Of a DNA stretch of 64,000 bases, positions 5,348 through 29,786 are shown piece by piece. Positions within the stretch are counted from its first letter, which is position 1; each line of letters starts with the position of its first letter. The stretch comes from Minisyncoccia bacterium (GTDB lineage Bacteria; Patescibacteriota; Minisyncoccia; Phycocordibacterales; UBA918): positions 4,484-68,483 of the forward strand of contig JBKBPM010000001.1 of assembly GCA_046293175.1 (NCBI GenBank). The letters are read 5' to 3'. Both the position numbers and the translations under genes were made by a program. Below the pieces are notes generated by a model, which did not search any database, was not told the origin of the DNA, and saw only the letters and a program-made list of their open reading frames with translations.

Positions 5348-6805
5348 ATGGGCTCAAAAACAGACGCCAAAGACACTTCACCACAGGTGGAGGCTTTCAT
5401 TAGAATTTTTCGCGCAGTTGTTGTGTTGGCGCTTGGTGTGCTTATTGGCTATTTCGTCTGGTACAACGCGACCACGCCCGATGCCAAGTTCCCCTTTAAG
5501 CTCGGGCTCGATCTCGCAGGTGGTAGTCACCTCGTTTATGAAGCGGACGTGAGTAAAATTGATCCCGCTGAAGTGCCAGAGCTCATGGCAGTGTTGCGCG
5601 ATGTGATTGAACGTCGTATCAACGTCTTTGGTGTTTCAGAACCAATTATCCAGGTCGAAGAAAGTAGTTTTGCGGCCGAAGAGAAGCGTCACCGTCTTGT
5701 GGTTGAACTCCCGGGAGTCACCGATGTGGAAGCAGCGGTTACTGAAATTGGCCGTACACCACTCCTTGAATTTAAGCTCATGAATGCAGAGAAGGTAATT
5801 GCGGCTGAACAAGCCGAGAACCTTCGCCGCAGTGCTTCTGGAACCGGTGCCATCATTGGTAATGTTTCAGTAAATGGAGAATCGGTTGATTCATTAGACC
5901 CATACACCGATACTGGTCTCACTGGACGATACCTTGCCAGTGCTGCTCTGGAATTCGCTGGGGGACAGTCTGGACAGCTAGCAAACGAACCGTTAGTCGC
6001 TATTACGTTCACGGACGAAGGGGGTAAGTTATTTGAAGAAATCACCCGTAATAATGTTGGGCAGCAGCTCGCGATTTTCCTTGATGGTGAAATCATTTCG
6101 GCTCCCCGCATTAATGAAGCCATCTCTGGTGGTCGAGCCACCATTTCAGGCGGCTTTACTCCAGATGAGGCCCGAGAACTCGCGCAGAACCTCAACTTTG
6201 GTGCGCTTCCCGTACCAATTAATCTTGAAAGTACACAAACCATCGGCGCTTCACTCGGAGCTGAGGTGCTCGAAAAAGGGGTAACGGCCGGTATTGTTGG
6301 TCTCGGGATCGTCATACTCTTTATGGTGTTGTGGTACCGCGTACCTGGACTCATTGCCGGTCTTGCCTTGCTGCTCTATGTGACCATTATGCTGTCTCTC
6401 TTTATGCTCATTCCTGTCACTCTGACGGCAGCGGGTCTTGCTGGTTTTATTTTGTCACTGGGTATGGCGGTGGATGCAAACGTACTAGTCTTTGAACGTA
6501 TGAAAGAAGAAATGCGCGCTGGACGAAGTAGTCGAGCCGGTGCCGAAGAAGGTTTTCGTCGAGCGTGGAGTGCGATTCGAGACGGAAACGCCACCAGTAT
6601 TCTTTCGGCTATTGTATTGTTTTGGTTTGGTACCTCCATTGTTAAAGGCTTCGCCCTGGTGTTTGGTATCGGCGTGATTGTATCAATGATAAGTGCGATT
6701 GTACTCACTCGTACTTTGCTTATGGCATTGCCGGATTATCAGTTGTCACACAGTAGGTTTATTCGCTTCGTCTACGGCAGTGGATTTAATCGTTCAAATA
6801 ATTAA
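5348..6805 (+). CDS. secD: Protein translocase subunit SecD
   Basis: LGLDLAGGSHLVYEAD signature, periplasmic domain, C-terminal 6-TM bundle. Confidence 0.9.
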   Translation: MGSKTDAKDTSPQVEAFIRIFRAVVVLALGVLIGYFVWYNATTPDAKFPFKLGLDLAGGSHLVYEADVSKIDPAEVPELMAVLRDVIERRINVFGVSEPIIQVEESSFAAEEKRHRLVVELPGVTDVEAAVTEIGRTPLLEFKLMNAEKVIAAEQAENLRRSASGTGAIIGNVSVNGESVDSLDPYTDTGLTGRYLASAALEFAGGQSGQLANEPLVAITFTDEGGKLFEEITRNNVGQQLAIFLDGEIISAPRINEAISGGRATISGGFTPDEARELAQNLNFGALPVPINLESTQTIGASLGAEVLEKGVTAGIVGLGIVILFMVLWYRVPGLIAGLALLLYVTIMLSLFMLIPVTLTAAGLAGFILSLGMAVDANVLVFERMKEEMRAGRSSRAGAEEGFRRAWSAIRDGNATSILSAIVLFWFGTSIVKGFALVFGIGVIVSMISAIVLTRTLLMALPDYQLSHSRFIRFVYGSGFNRSNN

Positions 6806-6811
6806 TCCGGT

Positions 6812-7789
6812 ATGTTTTCAGTTATCTACAAAAAATACTTTCTTGCGGCGACTGTCGTGATCTTTGCGGTATCGCTTGGAATCATCGCGGTGTTCGGATT
6901 ACAGTATAGTATCGACTTTACCGGAGGCGCCCTCACGGAAGTGAGTTACGATGTGGTACCCACCAAGGCTGAACTAGAAAGCGCCCTTACGCCACTTAAT
7001 CTCGGTGGTGTCTCGGTGCGCGAAACCACATTAGGTGACCGAGGTGAAGGGTATTTCATTCGTACTCGTGACCTCTCAGAAGAAGAACGTACTACGCTCG
7101 AAGAAACTATTCTAGCGGTAGGAGAAGGAGGAAATATTGAGCGTTTTACCACCGTTGGACCAACTATTGGAGCCGAGCTTTCGAGCAAGGCGGTGTGGGC
7201 GCTTGGGTTTGTATCACTCATTATTATTCTCTATGTTGCGTATGCCTTTGCGGGTATCGGCAAGCCAGTGAGTGCCTGGATTTATGGGCTTATTACAATT
7301 TTTGTGCTCTTTCACGACGTGCTCGTACCGACAGCGATGATGAGTCTGCTTGGTCACTTTGTGGGCGCTGAAATTGATGTCCTCTTTGTGATGGCGGTCC
7401 TCGCTGTCCTTGGGTACTCGGTCAACGACACGATTGTTGTATTTGACCGGGTCCGTGAAAATCTAAAATTAAATCGAACGGAAAGACGGACCAAAATCAA
7501 AGAGCCAGGTGGTATTGAACTAGAGCATGTTGAGTATACCTTGACCAAGCCGTTTAATGACATTATTGGTCCCGCTGTTACCGAGACCCTTGGTCGGTCG
7601 ATTAATACCTCGTTCACTACACTGCTCGCCCTCATTGCGCTGTACTTTTTTGGTGGGGAATTAACTAAAAATTTTGCACTGGTGTTGATGGCTGGTGTGG
7701 TAGCGGGAACCTACTCGTCTATTTGTATGGCGGTACCACTTTTGGCAGCGTATGCTAAGTGGCAGGCAAAGCGTGAGATTAGTAAGTAG
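6812..7789 (+). CDS. secF: Protein translocase subunit SecF
   Basis: Immediately downstream of secD; SIDFTGGALTEV motif and SecF-type TM bundle. Confidence 0.9.
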   Translation: MFSVIYKKYFLAATVVIFAVSLGIIAVFGLQYSIDFTGGALTEVSYDVVPTKAELESALTPLNLGGVSVRETTLGDRGEGYFIRTRDLSEEERTTLEETILAVGEGGNIERFTTVGPTIGAELSSKAVWALGFVSLIIILYVAYAFAGIGKPVSAWIYGLITIFVLFHDVLVPTAMMSLLGHFVGAEIDVLFVMAVLAVLGYSVNDTIVVFDRVRENLKLNRTERRTKIKEPGGIELEHVEYTLTKPFNDIIGPAVTETLGRSINTSFTTLLALIALYFFGGELTKNFALVLMAGVVAGTYSSICMAVPLLAAYAKWQAKREISK

Positions 7790-7792
7790 TCT

Positions 7793-8344
7793 ATGATTAT
7801 TGGTATTGCCGGAACCGACGGATCTGGAAAAGGCACGGTCGTTGATCATCTCGTTAAAAATTATGGCTTTGCGCATTACTCCAGCCGAGCGATTATTCTT
7901 GAACACATAAACGCTTTTGGATTGCCTGACACTCGAGCTCAGATGCGGCTCTCCGCTAATGAGCTACGTGCAAAGCATGGAAATGATTTTTTGGTGACAC
8001 AAGCACTTAAACGCATGCAGCGTGATGGTGTACATAATGCGATTATCGAATCAATTCGAGCTACCGCTGAAGCAAATACACTAAAATCTCACGGAGGAAT
8101 CCTGCTCGCTGTTGATGCCAATCAAGAACTTCGTTATGAGCGTGTACAAGCTAGACGTTCAGAAACAGACCGAGTCTCATTTGAGCAATTTGTTGCACAT
8201 GAAGAGCTTGAAAAGAATGATCCCGACCCTCATGGTATGCAAAAAGGGAAAGTGATTGAAATGGCCGATTACACCATCATGAACGATGGTACCATAGAGG
8301 AGTTGCATCAGGCGGTTGATGCGTTTATGCAAAAATATCTCTAA
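7793..8344 (+). CDS. P-loop nucleotide/nucleoside kinase family protein (exact substrate unclear)
   Basis: Walker A IGIAGTDGSGKGTV at N-terminus, 183 aa, kinase-like size. Confidence 0.5.
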   Translation: MIIGIAGTDGSGKGTVVDHLVKNYGFAHYSSRAIILEHINAFGLPDTRAQMRLSANELRAKHGNDFLVTQALKRMQRDGVHNAIIESIRATAEANTLKSHGGILLAVDANQELRYERVQARRSETDRVSFEQFVAHEELEKNDPDPHGMQKGKVIEMADYTIMNDGTIEELHQAVDAFMQKYL

Positions 8345-22433: not shown

Positions 22434-23380
22434 ATGTTAAAAACTGCTGAATGTGTTTCACCTCGTCATCCTGATAAGATTTGTGATCGGATTTCTGACG
22501 CTGTTCTTGATGTGTATCTATCTGAGGACCCAAAAAGTCGAGTGGCGATTGAGGCGGTGGGGAGTCATGGTCAGGTGTGGGTGACTGGGGAGGTTACCTC
22601 AACTGCGACCGGCATCGATATTCCGGCTATTGTCCGCGAGATAGCGGGAGATAATTTAGAAATTCGTGTGCACGTCGTAGCGCAGAGTCCAGAGATTGCG
22701 CAGGGGGTGGATGTAGGTGGTGCGGGTGACCAAGGTATTATGACCGGCTATGCCACCCGTGAGACCAAAAGTTATATGCCACGTGAGTACGAGTTGGCCC
22801 GTCAGCTCTGTCAGAAGGTATATGAAGTTTTCCCGTTTGATGGCAAGACTCAAGTGACGGTTGATGGTACCGGTGCAGTTACCTCAGTGGTCTGTAGTTT
22901 CCAAAACGCACCAAAGGCTAAGCTTGAAGCGCTCGTACGGTCGGTGATCCCTAATGCTCGCGAATACCACATCAATCCCGCTGGTGATTGGAGTCAGGGC
23001 GGCTTTGATGCTGATGCTGGGCTTACTGGACGTAAGATTATTGTCGACAACTATGGACCTGAGGTGGCAGTTGGTGGCGGCGCCTTCTCTGGTAAAGATC
23101 CGAGCAAGGTAGACCGTAGCGCCGCCTATATGGCACGGCGCATTGCAGTTGATTATCTCGAGGCACGGCCTGAAGCGAATACGGTCCTCGTGAAGCTTGC
23201 GTACGCCATTGGGCACCCTGAGGCACTTATGGCGGTCGCTATCGTCGACGGCGTACCAGAGACGGTCGAAGGGTACAATCTCACCCCGCAGGAATTAAGG
23301 ATTTCCTCGGGCTTGAGGCACCAATCTACGCTGATACGGCAGCGTGGGGGCACTTTGGGCGCGGGTTTAGTTGGAGGTAG
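22434..23380 (+). CDS. metK: S-adenosylmethionine synthetase MetK (compact form) with an apparent 1-nt deletion or frameshift near 23298-23301; true frame ends at TAG 23378-23380
   Basis: HPDKICDRISDAVLD, GGGAFSGKDPSKVDRSAAY signatures in frame 0; conserved C-terminus DFLGLEAPIYADTAAWGHFGRGFSWR* is in the -1 frame starting at 23300. Confidence 0.8.
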
Positions 23381-23387
23381 GAGAACA

Positions 23388-23427
23388 AGAAAAGGCCGGA
23401 GCTATCGCTCCGGCCTTTTCTTTTTTC
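23388..23427 (+). terminator. Rho-independent terminator between metK and rsmI
   Basis: aaaaggccggagctatcgctccggccttttcttttttc. Confidence 0.75.
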
Positions 23428-23457
23428 AAAATCGTGGTACGGTATGGCAACTACGTA

Positions 23458-24143
23458 TGCATAAAATTGGCACCCTTTTTGTCGTTGCTACCCCGATTGG
23501 GAACATGGAGGATATCACACTCCGTGCGCTTCGGGTTTTTCGTGAAGTAGATTATGTGTTGTGTGAGGATACTCGTACGACCGGGAATCTTTTGAAGCAC
23601 CACGGGGTAAAGGCCAAACTAAAACGTTACGATGCACATGCCAGTGTCGCCGCTCACGAAGCGATTGTGGCTGACCTGGTCGTCGGGCAGTCAATTGCCC
23701 TGGTTTCAGACGCCGGAACCCCAGGTGTCTCAGATCCCGGAGTGGTCCTGGTACGCCAAGCCCGCGCCGCGGGCTGTCGGATTGATGCTATTCCTGGTGC
23801 GTCAGCTATTACGGCCGCTATTTCTATCGCTGGTATCAACGGAAATCAGTTTAGTTTTCTCGGCTTTGTCCCAAGTAAGAAGGGGCGCGAGACATTTTTT
23901 GCAGATCTCGAGCTCTATGATCATCCGGTAGTTTTTTTTGAGGCAACTCACCGTATTCTTAAAACACTAGAGAGCCTCGCGGCACAGTACAGTACCGCTA
24001 CGCTTCATCTCGCGCGAGAACTTACCAAATTCCATGAAGAGATGCTTGTGGGATCGCCGGCGGAGATTTTGGCAACCTTAACCGCAGCACCGGTCAAGCA
24101 AAAAGGGGAGTTTGTACTTATTTTGACCCAACCAAACGCCTAA
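23458..24143 (+). CDS. rsmI: 16S rRNA (cytidine1402-2'-O)-methyltransferase RsmI (tetrapyrrole-methylase fold)
   Basis: MHKIGTLFVVATPIGNMEDITLRALRVFREVDYVLCEDTRTTGNLLKHHGV; ORF track fuses it to metK only because of the upstream frameshift. Confidence 0.8.
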
Positions 24144-24462: not shown

Positions 24463-26127
24463 GTGGTAGCTGGTACAATATCCCTAATGAATCAGATAAT
24501 TAAGTTTCTGCTTTTGTTCTGTGTACTGTTTGGAGCAGAGATTGCTTTGGCTGCACCAATTGTGCCTGGGTCATTTTCAACGACGTGGGATACTGGTGTT
24601 GATACTACCGTTACGATTAACCTTGGAGTTTGCCCAAGTGCCATATATTGGGAAGAAATTGGTAATGCTAGTAATAATGGTACAACTACTGATTGTGTGG
24701 GTAGCACTCAAACTATCACTTTTCCCACTCCAGGGCAGTATCGAACAGACTTCAGTGGTTCTTTTACGAAAATTGATTTAGGAGTTTTAGGTAACCGATA
24801 TAAATTTCGTACGGTTGAGCAGTGGGGAAGTAGTAACTGGACGGACATGTACCTTGCTTTTTCTAATGTTACCCAGCTTGTATTTAATGCTGTTGATACC
24901 CCAGATCTATCTTCGGTGACAGATATGTCATACATGTTTAGTGGGGCAACTAATTTTAATTCTCCGATTGGAAACTGGGATGTATCCAATGTGACTTCAA
25001 TGTTTTTTATGTTCAGATCTGCGGCAGCGTTCAACCAGCCGCTCAATGCTTGGAATATTTCAAACGTGACAAACATAAAGGGTATTTTTAATAACGCCAC
25101 TTCCTTTAATCAGCCACTTGATAACTGGGATGTATCTCAGATTACAGAAATGCATTCAGTGTTTGCTGGTGCTACTGCTTTCAATCAACCACTCAATTCC
25201 TGGGATGTCTCGCAGGTAACCTCATTCCGAGGCGAAGCCCCATACCCTGATAGAGGCATGTTTGCCGGTGCCACCTCATTCAATCAACCACTCGATGCCT
25301 GGGATGTCTCAAGTGCCTCTGATATGAGATGGATGTTTAATGGCGCCACCTCATTCAATCAACCACTCGATGCCTGGGATGTCTCAAATGTAACTAGTAT
25401 GGCGAGTATGTTTCAAAATGCTACCGCATTTAACCAACCACTCGATGCCTGGGATGTCTCAAATGTAACTAGTATGGCGAGTATGTTTCAAAATGCTACC
25501 GCATTTAACCAACCACTCAATTCTTGGGATGTCTCAAGTGCCTCTGATATGATATGGATGTTTAATGGCGCTTCTTCATTTAATCAGTCACTTCGAAATT
25601 GGCAAATTTACAGTGAGGTAGCAATAGGAGATATTTTCCGTGATGCAACTGCGTTATCCTCGGAAAATTATGCTGATATGCTTATTGGTTGGTCACAATT
25701 AAGTTCAATACCTATGAATATTGATCTAGGTATTGTATCGGCTCGGTACTGTGATACGGCCGAAAACGCTCGAACATTACTCCGTACTGAGTACCTTTGG
25801 AATATTACCGACCTTGGCCCTGAAGTCTGTGCATCAGTTGAAGAACCGGCTCCAGAGGTTACCCCTCGGGTAGGAAATGGTAGTACAAGGACAAAAGTAG
25901 GTCTTCGAGAAAAACGTCTTGATGACCTTAAGGCCGCCATGTCTTCCAGTACTGCACCGGTGAGTGAAAAGCTTGTCAGTTTTGTTTCCTCCCTCAAAAA
26001 ATTCCTCAACTACCTCACGACCCACGAAGAAGAAATGAAAAATCTCTCGCCAGAAGAGTCTAAAGCGGTAATAATGGTACTACGAGACGCCATTCTGGAG
26101 CTCCTTAAGTGGCTGCCGGGGGTCTAA
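24463..26127 (+). CDS. Secreted BspA-like / DUF285 (Mycoplasma-lipoprotein-type) repeat surface protein
   Basis: Signal peptide; about 10 tandem 25-26-aa repeats of consensus FNQPLxxWDVSxVTxMxxMFxxATxFNQ. Confidence 0.75.
   Translation: MVAGTISLMNQIIKFLLLFCVLFGAEIALAAPIVPGSFSTTWDTGVDTTVTINLGVCPSAIYWEEIGNASNNGTTTDCVGSTQTITFPTPGQYRTDFSGSFTKIDLGVLGNRYKFRTVEQWGSSNWTDMYLAFSNVTQLVFNAVDTPDLSSVTDMSYMFSGATNFNSPIGNWDVSNVTSMFFMFRSAAAFNQPLNAWNISNVTNIKGIFNNATSFNQPLDNWDVSQITEMHSVFAGATAFNQPLNSWDVSQVTSFRGEAPYPDRGMFAGATSFNQPLDAWDVSSASDMRWMFNGATSFNQPLDAWDVSNVTSMASMFQNATAFNQPLDAWDVSNVTSMASMFQNATAFNQPLNSWDVSSASDMIWMFNGASSFNQSLRNWQIYSEVAIGDIFRDATALSSENYADMLIGWSQLSSIPMNIDLGIVSARYCDTAENARTLLRTEYLWNITDLGPEVCASVEEPAPEVTPRVGNGSTRTKVGLREKRLDDLKAAMSSSTAPVSEKLVSFVSSLKKFLNYLTTHEEEMKNLSPEESKAVIMVLRDAILELLKWLPGV
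25366..25515 (+). repeat. Perfect 75-bp tandem duplication (2 units) inside the BspA-like gene
   Basis: ctcgatgcctgggatgtctcaaatgtaactagtatggcgagtatgtttcaaaatgctaccgcatttaaccaacca repeated head-to-tail (25366-25440, 25441-25515). Confidence 0.9.
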
Positions 26128-26179: not shown

Positions 26180-27718
26180 ATGTACAACGAAGAGGATACA
26201 CCTCGCCGTTTTTACGCGATTTCGTTTGAAGATGATGAACCGATTGTCACAATGGGGACGCTTATTCCGCGTAAAGAACTATCGTTTCATCCGAGAACTG
26301 TTGCCCTCCCGCCACGTCCAACGAGACTCCTCATCGCTTCTCGAACGTTGGCACTCCTCGCCACACTCGTCTTTTGTATTTATGGAGCCGTCTTTGTGGC
26401 GCCAATCGCGGTCGAACGAGGACAAACCCTGCTTGCGAGTACCTTTTCGACTATCATCGCGACCAATAACGCACCCGTTGTGATTGAGCATCCGTACTCC
26501 AAAGAAGTGACACCTTTGACGTATGGTATAGAGGTAGCGTTTTCAGAGCCAGATTTTTTTGCCACTGCACGGGATGCGTTTATCGAAGCTGAGCGGACGT
26601 TTGTCGAGGCTGACTTGGCGGCGATGCGCCTGCGTTATTTTGAGGACGGAGTGCTGGTCCTTGAATATCCGATTGTAAAAAAAGGAGAACCTGGTACCTT
26701 CTGGGAGACACCAGCTGGACTTTATGAGGTAGAGAAAAAGAAACAAACACACTTCGCCTCTTTCGGACAAGTGTATTTGCCGTATAGTATGGCCTTCCAG
26801 GGTAACTTTTATATTCACGGTACGCCGTACTACGAAACCGGGGATGTACCGACCACTACTGCCCAAGGTGGTATCGAGCTCGCTACAGCTGATGCTAAAG
26901 AGCTCTACGAAGTGGTGCCACTCCACACACCGGTTTTGGTCTACGAACGAGCTGCCGACCGCAAAGAGTTTTTGTATGAACCAAAAGTACCGGAACTAGC
27001 CACTCCCCACTACCTGATTGCTGATGTTGAATCAGGTACGGTTCTGGCCGCAAGCGACCTCAGTGAAGCGGTCCCGATTGCGTCACTGACGAAGTTGATG
27101 ACCGCGGTTGTGGCCGCTGAATATATCAATCTCGATACCCGAGTGGCGATTACTGAGCCAACTTTTGTACAATCACTTATTCCTCGTCTAGGAGAGCGAA
27201 GCTCGGTGTCGTTCTATTCACTCCTTGAACTCCTGCTGCAGGAATCATCAAATGAAGCGGCTGAGGTAATTGCTTCTGAAGTCGGACGTGAGCAGTTTAT
27301 CAAGTACATGAATGAGCGTGCGAAGTCGCTTGGTATGTCATACACCACATTCACTGATCCATCGGGTCTTGATAATGGCAACGTCTCGTCGGTGGGAGAT
27401 CTGCTTCGACTGATGCAGTACATTTACGAAAAGCGCCATTTTATTGTTGATATCAGTGCTGGAAAAAAACTCCCGGACATGTATGTGACGGGTGAATTCA
27501 GTGGTTTGGCTAACTTCAATACCGTTGACGGTATGGATAATTTCATTGGTGGTAAAATCGGTGAGACCACCGCAGCCGGACAAACTTCCGTCACACTACA
27601 CACCCTTAATGTGCGGGGTGAAGAACGGGTAGTGGCAATTATTATTCTCGGCTCAAAGGGACGCAATGCTGATGTGACGGCACTACTGAAGTATGCAGAA
27701 GAGCGTTTTGGCAGCTAA
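26180..27718 (+). CDS. Membrane-anchored fusion: L,D-transpeptidase (YkuD)-like domain with D-Ala-D-Ala carboxypeptidase (peptidase S11, PBP5-like) domain
   Basis: N-terminal TM; YkuD-like FYIHGTPYYETG...AQGGIEL (canonical SHGCIRL position carries Gly instead of Cys); S11 motifs ASLTKLMT (SxxK), SGLDNGN (SxN), GGKIGET (KTG-like). Confidence 0.65.
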   Translation: MYNEEDTPRRFYAISFEDDEPIVTMGTLIPRKELSFHPRTVALPPRPTRLLIASRTLALLATLVFCIYGAVFVAPIAVERGQTLLASTFSTIIATNNAPVVIEHPYSKEVTPLTYGIEVAFSEPDFFATARDAFIEAERTFVEADLAAMRLRYFEDGVLVLEYPIVKKGEPGTFWETPAGLYEVEKKKQTHFASFGQVYLPYSMAFQGNFYIHGTPYYETGDVPTTTAQGGIELATADAKELYEVVPLHTPVLVYERAADRKEFLYEPKVPELATPHYLIADVESGTVLAASDLSEAVPIASLTKLMTAVVAAEYINLDTRVAITEPTFVQSLIPRLGERSSVSFYSLLELLLQESSNEAAEVIASEVGREQFIKYMNERAKSLGMSYTTFTDPSGLDNGNVSSVGDLLRLMQYIYEKRHFIVDISAGKKLPDMYVTGEFSGLANFNTVDGMDNFIGGKIGETTAAGQTSVTLHTLNVRGEERVVAIIILGSKGRNADVTALLKYAEERFGS

Positions 27719-27890: not shown

Positions 27891-29786
27891 ATGACGCAGT
27901 TTGACCCAGAAAAAATCACCTTCTTTGCCAAAACCGACGCTCGGGGGAAAGTTATACCCTTTGGTATCAAAGCCCGTGACCGTCAGCGACACATGTACGT
28001 CATCGGGAAGACAGGTATGGGTAAGTCGACCTTGCTTGAAAATATGGCTGCCCAAGATATCCAAAGTGGGGAAGGGATGGCTTTTATCGACCCGCACGGT
28101 TCAGCCGCCGAAAAGCTCCTTGAGTATATTCCGGAACATCGAGTAAACGACGTCATCTATTTTGCGCCATTTGATCTTGATAATCCAGTCTCGTTTAACG
28201 TGATGGAAGACGTTGGTCCAGATAAACGTCATCTCGTAGTGTCCGGCCTCATGTCGACCTTCAAGAAGATATGGGTTGATGCCTGGAGTGCCCGTATGGA
28301 GTACATTCTTACCAACGCGCTTTTGGCCCTCATTGAGTACCCTGATACAACACTCCTGTCAGTCAACCGTCTGTTTTCAGATAAGCACTTCCGCAACCGC
28401 GTCGTTGACTACGTGAAGGATCCAGCCGTAAAAGCTTTTTGGGTGGAAGAATTTGCGGCATATACCGATCGTTTTGCGGCTGAAGCCTTGCCAGCGATTC
28501 AAAACAAAATCGGTCAGTTTACGGGGAACCCCCTCATTCGTAATATCATCGGCCAACCACACTCAAGTTTTGATATTCGTAAAATTATGGATGAGAAAAA
28601 GATTCTCATTATTAACCTCTCTAAGGGGTTGGTAGGAGATACTAATGCGAACCTGCTTGGGTCCATGCTTACTACCCGTATTTACCTCGCGGCCATGAGT
28701 CGCGCTGACCTACTACCGGCGGTGATGAAGACAATGCCAAACTTCTACTTCTACGTGGACGAGTTTCAATCGTTTGCGAACGCCACTTTTGCGAATATTC
28801 TCTCTGAAGCGCGTAAGTACCATCTCAACCTCATTATTGCGCACCAGTACATCGAACAGATGGAAGAGGATGTCCGTAATGCGGTCTTTGGTAACGTCGG
28901 AACGACGGTAGCGTTTCGCGTTGGGCCATTTGATGCGGAGGTGCTCGAGACCATCTTCACGCCACGGTTTTTGGCAGCGGACCTCGTGAATCTTGGTGCC
29001 TATCAGATTTATCTGACACTCATGATTGATGGGATTGGCTCGCAACCATTTTCGGCCGTGACCTTGCCCGAGATCCCACCGCCACGGATTTCGTGTCGAG
29101 ATATGGTGATAGCGGCGAGCCGCAAGAACTTTGCGACTCCGCGTCCGATTGTCGAAAAAATCATCACCGATCTGCATACGCCAGTTGAACCACCAGTTAA
29201 GCCACCAAAGCCTGATATACCAAAAAGCGACACTCACAAAGGTGAAGTGAAGTCGACAGGTGCTTCGAGTTCTGCAAGTAGTAGTACACCAAAGACTGAC
29301 AAACCGGTACCAACCGCACCAGCCCGAATCGACCGGCCAGCTCCAAAGCCAAAGCCAAAACCAACCAATCGCCCGGTAGGCTCTGAAGCTAAACCGAAGC
29401 CGACACCAACCCCAGTTCCAACGGTGACCGCCGATGGGCTCAAGGCTGTGCTCGCTCGTATTGCTGCTGCGACCAACGATACCAATGGCAAGAAAGGCGA
29501 AGATAAGCCCGCAGCAGCAACGTCAAAGGTTGAAGCAACGGCACCAGCTACTGATCATCGAAGTGCCTTGCGGTCGGTGCTTGGTTCTGTACTTGAAACA
29601 GCGTCAGCGCCACAAATGACGGTACCTGCTCCAGTCGAAAAACCTGAACCAAATCCACAGTCAACAGCACCAGCTTCAGCTCCAGTAGCTCCTGATACTG
29701 CCTATATATCTGATGCGGCTGAACCAGATATCAAAGTGCTCAAAAAAATCCTCAGGAATGATGCTAAGGTCAAATCTCCATTTTGA
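27891..29786 (+). CDS. VirD4/TraD/TrwB-like (type IV coupling protein superfamily) P-loop ATPase with long Pro/Lys/Thr/Ala-rich disordered C-terminal tail
   Basis: Walker A YVIGKTGMGKSTLL; Walker B FYFYVDEFQSF; ARKYHLNLIIAHQYIEQM downstream motif; C-terminal 200 aa low complexity (PKPKPKPT, PTPTPVPT). Confidence 0.55.
   Translation: MTQFDPEKITFFAKTDARGKVIPFGIKARDRQRHMYVIGKTGMGKSTLLENMAAQDIQSGEGMAFIDPHGSAAEKLLEYIPEHRVNDVIYFAPFDLDNPVSFNVMEDVGPDKRHLVVSGLMSTFKKIWVDAWSARMEYILTNALLALIEYPDTTLLSVNRLFSDKHFRNRVVDYVKDPAVKAFWVEEFAAYTDRFAAEALPAIQNKIGQFTGNPLIRNIIGQPHSSFDIRKIMDEKKILIINLSKGLVGDTNANLLGSMLTTRIYLAAMSRADLLPAVMKTMPNFYFYVDEFQSFANATFANILSEARKYHLNLIIAHQYIEQMEEDVRNAVFGNVGTTVAFRVGPFDAEVLETIFTPRFLAADLVNLGAYQIYLTLMIDGIGSQPFSAVTLPEIPPPRISCRDMVIAASRKNFATPRPIVEKIITDLHTPVEPPVKPPKPDIPKSDTHKGEVKSTGASSSASSSTPKTDKPVPTAPARIDRPAPKPKPKPTNRPVGSEAKPKPTPTPVPTVTADGLKAVLARIAAATNDTNGKKGEDKPAAATSKVEATAPATDHRSALRSVLGSVLETASAPQMTVPAPVEKPEPNPQSTAPASAPVAPDTAYISDAAEPDIKVLKKILRNDAKVKSPF

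Follow-up and report, generated by a model that had tools for sequence, protein, structure and literature searches.

A YkuD-fold domain without its catalytic cysteine, joined to a predicted active S11 peptidase domain in a Patescibacteria fusion protein

What becomes of a peptidoglycan cross-linking domain whose catalytic cysteine has gone while the protein that carries it is retained? The question is raised by a gene in a 64,000-nucleotide stretch of contig JBKBPM010000001.1 (assembly GCA_046293175.1, positions 4,484 to 68,483 of the forward strand) from a Minisyncoccia bacterium, here called the window. The gene encodes a single polypeptide in which a transmembrane (TM) helix precedes a YkuD-like domain of the L,D-transpeptidase (LDT) type and a peptidase S11 domain. 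The YkuD-like domain lacks its nucleophile and is nevertheless under strong purifying selection, the S11 domain retains its SxxK and SxN residues and the Lys and Gly of its third box, and the cysteine is ancestral in the family and has been lost repeatedly. The protein is identical to NCBI entry MFN3692496.1, [quoted passage not shown], where it is already deposited and automatically annotated with both domains.

Fold and active sites of the two domains

The original prediction, made from the sequence alone, had proposed a fusion of a YkuD-like and an S11 domain in one polypeptide, and this is borne out by Pfam matches above cut-off for both domains and by folds that agree with them. The YkuD match (PF03734) spans residues 140-254 and profile positions 2-146 of 146 (E 2.8e-13, 51.1 bits; cut-off 23.4), and in PDB sequence searches residues 138-255 matched the LDTs 5bmq and Ldt_fm of Enterococcus faecium (1zat/6fj1). 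An AlphaFold2 (AF2) model of this domain only (residues 97-266) had a predicted local distance difference test score (pLDDT) of 81, and its top 50 PDB neighbours in Foldseek were all LDTs, with 5bmq as the best (E 2.9e-9), in agreement with the YkuD beta-sandwich. The S11 match (PF00768) spans residues 269-488 (E 2.6e-28, 99.5 bits; cut-off 27.6). In the full-length AF2 model (pLDDT 75), Foldseek assigned the S11 half to penicillin-binding protein (PBP) structures of the PBP7/PBP5 type, with 6azi and 6muq at E ~2e-14 and a probability of 1.00, in agreement with the penicilloyl-serine-transferase fold.

The nucleophilic Cys of the LDT motif (S/T)-x-G-C-(I/V)-(R/N) is absent from the YkuD-like domain, as had been predicted. 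The corresponding strand is Q-G-G-I-E-L: Gly231 occupies the place of the Cys, and Glu233 stands where the family has Arg (the +2 position). In the HMMER alignment the query residues “aqGGiel” stand opposite “gsHGCvnl” of 5bmq and “gsHGCin” of Ldt_fm (1zat). Query residues “fyiHGtp” fall on the catalytic-His strand, and His213 corresponds to the His of “giHD” in Ldt_fm and of “glHt” in 5bmq. MAFFT runs disagree on whether Cys was substituted by Gly or was deleted together with a one-residue shortening of the loop; either way, the domain is left without a nucleophile.

The sole Cys of the protein, C66, lies inside the TM helix. No compensating Cys was found elsewhere in register; the only other Cys-rich columns in an alignment of 121 sequences (the query and 120 homologues, to which all counts out of 121 refer) are residue 66 and a minor one at residue 175 (6 sequences). 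The two observations that had been named as speaking against the prediction, a Cys elsewhere in register and the lack of a YkuD profile match, were thus not made. Since the Cys is gone and the neighbouring Arg is now Glu233, the domain should be unable to form a thioacyl intermediate. It shares the fold, the catalytic-type His and the G-x-I-x-L strand with the YkuD LDTs (Bacillus subtilis YkuD 1y7m, E. faecium Ldt_fm 1zat, Mycobacterium tuberculosis LdtMt2 and 5bmq), and differs from them in Gly231 for Cys, in Glu for the +2 Arg and in the replacement of pocket tryptophans. Judged by sequence, the window protein is a member of the YkuD fold family and not an LDT enzyme.

The S11 domain presents the opposite picture. 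Ser302 and Lys305 of the SxxK box are invariant (121/121), and so are all three residues of the SxN box, S356-S357-N358, which align with “SeN” of the PBP7-type structures 6muq and 6azi. Lys and Gly of the third box occur in 120 of the 121 sequences, with Val (83) or Ile (37) at position 460, and the downstream Thr463 is conserved. Of the motifs named from the sequence alone, SLTK is this SxxK box, SGLDNGN (residues 395-401) had been taken for the SxN box and is instead a loop conserved in S11, and in the third box, K-I-G, Ile stands in place of Thr. Other subfamilies of the family have KTG, KNG or KSG in this box, and Val or Ile is found throughout the query's subfamily.

In PDB sequence searches, the C-terminal half matched PBP7-type DD-endopeptidases best (6muq, E 9.6e-19; 6azi), followed by carboxypeptidases of the DacB/PBP5/PBP6 type. 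The best NCBIfam model was the PBP7/PbpG D-alanyl-D-alanine endopeptidase equivalog NF008668, and at 93.1 bits against a cut-off of 294 the domain is not an equivalog. Single-domain PBPs of MEROPS family S11 (Escherichia coli PBP7/PbpG-like 6azi and 6muq, Listeria PBPD2 5zqa, B. subtilis DacB-like 3mfd) have the same fold (Foldseek E ~2e-14, template-modelling score to the target 0.69-0.80) and, like the query, possess SxxK, SxN and the third-box Lys and Gly. No PBP5/DacA-type C-terminal beta-rich domain or amphipathic anchor is present in the query, in which the S11 domain ends the protein (last helix, residues 495-510 of 512). It differs from the single-domain enzymes in its N-terminal TM anchor, the preceding YkuD-fold domain and K-I/V-G in place of K-T-G. 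With the SxxK and SxN residues and the third-box Lys and Gly in place, the S11 domain is most likely active.

The remaining parts of the protein are listed in Table 1. The top-scoring 19-residue Kyte-Doolittle windows begin at residues 56-60, with six Lys/Arg upstream and one downstream, and a type II membrane protein with N-in/C-out topology is predicted. A TM helix had been placed at the N-terminus; the helix is there, preceded by a cytoplasmic tail of 53 residues. Several tail residues are kept in at least 113 of the 121 sequences (F11 116, Y12 114, G26 117, I29 118 and P30 116). The tail motif is restricted to closer relatives; the majority of distant family members have shorter proteins without it, and the N-terminus could be aligned in only ~16 of 150 representatives. 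A cytoplasmic partner may dock at this motif. The synonymous rate (dS) of the tail in the closest pair is 0.44, below that of the rest of the gene, for a segment of only 53 codons. In the segment before the YkuD-like domain, G116 (121), Y115 (119), F127 (119) and F126 (118) are conserved among the 121.

Table 1. Features of the fusion gene and of neighbouring genes, in positions of the window
Feature	Position	Strand	Remark
Fusion gene, complete (512 aa + stop)	26180..27718	+	ATG-started open reading frame spanning exactly these coordinates
Cytoplasmic N-terminal tail, aa 1-53	26180..26338	+	predicted disordered, pLDDT <50
Conserved tail motif RRFYAxS(F/Y)xDDxP...G.LIP, aa 9-30	26204..26269	+	
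Single TM helix, aa ~56-78	26345..26413	+	Kyte-Doolittle; AF2 helix 54-73
Juxtamembrane/pre-YkuD segment, aa 100-139: two short strands and a helix	26477..26596	+	conservation, AF2
YkuD (L,D-transpeptidase) fold domain, aa 140-254, without catalytic nucleophile	26597..26941	+	Pfam, PDB sequence matches, Foldseek
His213, counterpart of the LDT catalytic His	26816..26818	+	
Degenerate active-site motif Q229-G230-G231-I232-E233-L234	26864..26881	+	family-ancestral form S-G-G-C-I-R-L
Gly231 codon GGT, at the Cys position	26870-26872	+	
Peptidase S11/low-molecular-mass class C PBP domain, aa 269-512	26984..27715	+	single-domain type
SxxK box S302-L-T-K305 (nucleophilic Ser, general-base Lys)	27083..27094	+	
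SxN box S356-S357-N358	27245..27253	+	
K-x-G box K459-I460-G461, then E462-T463	27554..27562	+	
metK and RsmI-like (TP_methylase) read as one 569-aa open reading frame	22434..24143		junction near 23290-23445
Large DUF285 (BspA-like repeat) surface protein	24463..26127		directly upstream of the fusion gene
TraG/VirD4-like coupling-protein ATPase (TrwB_AAD_bind, TraG-D_C)	27891..29786		immediately downstream of the fusion gene

The fusion family and the loss of one active site

A word-indexed search returned 1358 matches. The best 120 share 52-95% identity with the query; apart from three shorter fragments (57-89% coverage), nearly all span 98-100% of its length, nearly all carry both Pfam domains, and the named sources are Patescibacteria or Paceibacteria. 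A profile search of 1.84 billion representatives gave 873 matches at E <= 1e-30, and 137-138 of the best 150 of these (E <= 1e-77; 50%-identity representatives) span both domains. The window protein can be aligned end to end with this family of Patescibacteria, through the TM helix, YkuD and S11. A scan of one genome per species found only ten two-domain loci, all in Patescibacteria metagenome-assembled genomes (MAGs), using family-specific peptide patterns that independent fusions elsewhere could escape. These surveys indicate that the YkuD-S11 fusion is a large, ancient and widespread Patescibacteria family.

While the fusion is conserved among relatives, the Gly at the Cys position is not family-wide. 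Of the 121 aligned sequences, 57 have Cys in the canonical SGGCIRL, 38 have Gly and 22 have the one-residue-shorter xGG-IEL; Ser (2), Ala (1) and Arg (1) are rare. A column census had placed Gly in 119 of 121, and inspection of the alignment block showed this to be an artefact of a one-residue MAFFT gap. The shorter state is that of the query and its clade (22/22 in the sample, plus locus L001).

Among 138 diverse two-domain representatives, 115 have the Cys, and (S/T)GGCI(R/K)L is also the motif of L002 and L004-L007, which are distant genomic relatives; Cys is thus identified as the ancestral state. In a neighbour-joining (NJ) tree of S11-domain sequences alone, the Cys state changes at least 15 times, and, independently of any tree, the nearest relative of at least 10 Cys-less proteins, at 73-83% identity, bears the Cys; loss of the Cys is therefore recurrent. 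It is overwhelmingly to Gly, one transversion from TGY. In these alignments, Gly is a trait of the query clade and of several other independent lineages rather than of the whole family, and the query sits in a coherent Cys-less clade with R233E and remodelled pocket tryptophans.

Cys-bearing members such as P0130 (Candidatus Kaiserbacteria, MBI4086510.1), L002 and L008 (6809-8224) have the architecture and length of the query at ~45-58% identity and, unlike the query, have SGGCIRL together with intact S11 motifs. In Paceibacteria, the Cys-bearing relatives also share the query's gene block (murD-murC ... fusion-TraG-like ATPase). Such proteins are plausibly true bifunctional DD-peptidase/LD-transpeptidases, as their motifs suggest.

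Two variants of the architecture were encountered. A three-domain form, YkuD-S11-PGA_cap (CapA-like, PF09587, E 1e-62 to 1e-72), occurs in L010 (5746..8046), where Ala stands at the Cys position, and in P0190 (780 aa); P0209, P0233, P0237 and P0242 (768-798 aa) are near P0190 in length. In L008, a Paceibacterota MAG, a stand-alone S11 PBP gene (5791..6798) lies directly upstream of a fusion gene (6809..8224) with both active sites intact, a tandem S11 duplication.

The S11 site has also been lost in parts of the family. In an alignment based on hidden Markov models (HMMs), 74 of 137 diverse two-domain representatives have both sites intact, 40 have an intact Cys with degenerate S11 motifs, 23 have lost the Cys and kept an intact S11 domain, and none has lost both. 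The SxxK Ser and/or Lys is missing from 31 of the 40. Among these mirror images of the query, with the LDT Cys intact and the SxxK, SxN and KTG residues lost, are P0154, P0158, P0168, P0193 and P0288-P0291, as well as others. Misalignment by mafft --add as a source of the S11-degenerate calls was ruled out by the HMM alignment, by inspection by eye and by P0154, whose S11 domain still scores 75 bits in Pfam and whose flanks align (“HPQGGLAHIMTALVA” vs “VPIASLTKLMTAVVA” in the query).

A second sample of 112 proteins around P0154 comprised 102 intact and 10 S11-degenerate members, all of the latter with Cys, and no doubly degenerate one. That most members keep both sites (74/137 and 102/112), and that DD-carboxypeptidases supply the donors of LDTs (PMC6428754), fits the view that the fusion is functionally logical. 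When pooled, the counts for both intact, S11-degenerate, Cys-lost and both lost are 233, 50, 85 and 0 (Fisher p ~9e-7, a value that takes no account of phylogeny). No double-dead form was found among ~370 proteins checked, in samples ranked by similarity to S11-intact or Cys-intact queries, in which such forms could be under-sampled. One tentative explanation, to which we give appreciably less than even weight, is that the two domains form an obligate unit, each serving the other in a non-catalytic role (docking, positioning), so that lineages would toggle between bifunctional, DD-peptidase-only and LDT-only states without ever losing both.

Constraint on the Cys-less domain and its possible roles

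Purifying selection on the Cys-less YkuD domain is strong, and the domain is not decaying. In the closest pair (query vs P0001, 92% identity), the nonsynonymous rate (dN) of the YkuD domain, 0.047, is as low as the 0.052 of the S11 domain, and omega is ~0.03, a rough value at dS >1.5, for which reason the dN comparison was used. The fold core is 95-100% conserved within the Cys-less clade (F141, E143, G157, TPAGLY 177-182, FQGNF 206-210, IHG 212-214 and P216). Constraint is partly relaxed all the same: the YkuD/S11 divergence ratio is 1.22 for Cys-bearing pairs, 1.4-2.0 for the Gly lineages and 1.78 for the query clade, so that, measured against S11, the rate of the domain is ~1.5x that of Cys-bearing members. 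Sites that are near-invariant in Cys-bearing members have been replaced in the query clade (W174F in 100%, W215T in 73%, R233E in 86%) or are relaxed there (S193, W202 and V224).

These observations fit best with an active D,D-carboxy/endopeptidase on a YkuD-fold pedestal or docking domain that is itself non-catalytic, which we regard as the probable arrangement. In the S11 domain, acylation of Ser302 would be followed by hydrolysis. The substrates would be stem peptides of the cell's own peptidoglycan, and the activity that of a D,D-carboxypeptidase, a D,D-endopeptidase or both, trimming pentapeptides and/or cleaving 4-3 cross-links. The domain order TM-YkuD-S11 puts the Cys-less domain in the position of a stalk. 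Kept without catalysis, it would most probably hold and orient the S11 domain at the wall in the manner of a rigid pedestal or spacer, and some docking of stem peptides, residual or altered, may persist.

The ancestor of the family would have been bifunctional, its DD-peptidase making tetrapeptides that its LDT used for 3-3 cross-links, and members that keep both sites plausibly carry out the two reactions one after the other. The window lineage would have retained the DD-peptidase chemistry only; since its LDT half has no nucleophile, this two-step logic is no longer possible within the window polypeptide. Of the original suggestion of a non-catalytic binding or scaffolding module, the non-catalytic part fits the purifying selection and the invariant fold core, and the remodelled pocket (W174F, W215T, R233E) leans towards a scaffold or altered binding.

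Three points weigh against an active peptidase on an inert pedestal. His213, of the catalytic type, is still conserved, in 119 of 121 relatives and in 95% of the Cys-less clade, and a pure spacer would not obviously need it; the residue may have a structural role. The third S11 box is K-I-G, and a change from Thr to Ile or Val is not canonical. Finally, dS is saturated even for the closest pair.

Among the alternatives, the one that survives best is that the Cys-less domain is a specific reader of stem peptides, which would take hold of tetra- or pentapeptide stems and either deliver them to the S11 site or target that site. Strong purifying selection and the retention of His213 and of the G-G-I-x-L strand are in keeping with such a reader, as are the independent Gly lineages, which conserve the whole pocket (W174 95%, W202 89%, R233 100%) in a way that fits ligand binding there. 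The pocket of the query clade itself, however, has been remodelled at two tryptophans and has undergone a charge reversal at position 233, which argues against unchanged recognition of stem peptides, and we consider this role unlikely, if worth keeping in mind, for the window protein.

Less likely still is an S11 domain that does not hydrolyse the wall of its own cell and acts instead as a D,D-transpeptidase of the K15 type, as a beta-lactam sink or sensor, or on a host wall during episymbiosis. The DD-transpeptidase of Streptomyces K15 is among the structural and sequence matches, the KTG box is atypical, and cultivated Patescibacteria are episymbionts (PMC11623550). The best sequence and structure matches are nevertheless PBP7-type endopeptidases and DacB/PBP5-type carboxypeptidases, the N-terminal TM helix anchors the protein in the membrane of its producer, and the gene shares a conserved block with murD and murC.

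Residual catalysis by the YkuD-like domain through another nucleophile or a His-activated water, e.g., as an L,D-carboxypeptidase or endopeptidase, is very improbable. Conservation of His213, and of F174 and E233 within the clade, implies that something is selected, but all characterised YkuD enzymes (transpeptidases, L,D-carboxypeptidases and DpaA-type hydrolases) use a Cys thiol (reviewed in PMC12729407), Gly at that position cannot be a nucleophile, no conserved Ser or Cys lies nearby in the clade alignment, and the rate of the domain rises after Cys loss. Equally hard to credit is a decaying, functionless relic whose deletion has simply not yet happened, as the faster relative rate and the several relaxed pocket residues would allow, because dN is as low as that of S11 in the closest pair at saturated dS, mean identity across the domain is ~69% within the clade with an invariant fold core, no truncations or frameshifts were found among clade members at 65-92% full-length identity, and Cys-less forms persist in many independent lineages.

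Gene neighbourhood, known systems and implications for Patescibacteria walls

The gene order around the fusion is murD, murC, metK, an RsmI-like methylase, a small TM protein, the DUF285 surface protein, the fusion, a TraG/VirD4-like ATPase, an epimerase and GT4 glycosyltransferases. This block is conserved in the close relatives L081 and L082, partly in L001-L003 and not in L004-L010. A functional link between the fusion and the TraG/VirD4-like ATPase was rejected: the two genes are adjacent in L001-L003 and the close relatives, and the adjacency is absent in L004-L010. Because these distant family members lack it, the neighbourhood is read as lineage synteny. No paralogue of the fusion gene was found within the 64-kb window, and a scan for promoters and terminators around the gene gave nothing above shuffled expectation.

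The N-terminal ~430 residues of the ATPase are 86-94% identical where the fusion is only ~50-92% identical, which is unusually conserved for a gene of the candidate phyla radiation (CPR), and its C-terminal ~200 residues form a Pro/Lys/Ala-rich low-complexity tail. The DUF285 protein is ~50% identical between close relatives, vs 88-96% for its neighbours, and this divergence suggests a fast-evolving surface or host-interaction protein. metK and the RsmI-like gene read as a single open reading frame because of a one-base frameshift ~30 codons before the metK stop. The proper C-terminus of metK, IKDFLGLEAPIYADTAAWGHFGRGFSWR followed by the stop, lies in another frame and matches that of L081, in which the genes are separate (315 and 228 aa); the frameshift is either an assembly error or real.

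Each of the two domains and their functional relationship are well known, and the fusion is not a new kind of system. A precedent for joining YkuD to a peptidase is PDB 4xxt, a Clostridial structural-genomics entry and the second-best structural neighbour of the query YkuD domain, in which YkuD has a metallopeptidase, a Zn-dependent amidase/DD-carboxypeptidase-like domain, as its fusion partner instead of the serine S11 PBP of the query. Degenerate LytM (dLytM) factors such as EnvC and NlpD have a peptidoglycan-enzyme fold, have lost the catalytic residues and are kept for a non-catalytic role in wall remodelling. They are a conceptual analogue with a different fold, activating separate amidases, whereas the dead domain of the query is covalently joined to a live partner.

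The LdtD-PBP6a-PBP1B “repair machine” of E. coli has the same two activities as the intact fusions, but on separate polypeptides, and the LDT half of the window protein is dead. In E. coli, a DD-carboxypeptidase supplies tetrapeptide donors to an LDT (PMC6428754). No description of a YkuD-S11 fusion, of natural Cys-less YkuD domains or of the reciprocal-loss pattern was found in the full texts searched.

On its own, the window protein is a modest curiosity and an annotation caveat. As its lineage has lost LDT chemistry and kept the domain, the name “L,D-transpeptidase family protein” is misleading there, and metabolic reconstructions that count the protein as an LDT would be wrong. The pattern across the family is the more interesting lead. 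The wall chemistry of Patescibacteria/CPR, whose tiny genomes encode very few cell-wall enzymes, is essentially unstudied; a CPR-wide DD-peptidase/LD-transpeptidase fusion suggests that 3-3 cross-linking fed by in-cis trimming of pentapeptides is a core of their wall synthesis. Recurrent loss of the Cys, loss of the S11 Ser/Lys in other lineages and the lack of a double-dead form provide a comparative handle on the non-catalytic roles of peptidoglycan-enzyme folds. If the two domains do form an obligate unit, the family would be a natural experiment in reciprocal pseudo-enzyme evolution, reporting on the use of 3-3 vs 4-3 cross-links across CPR lineages.

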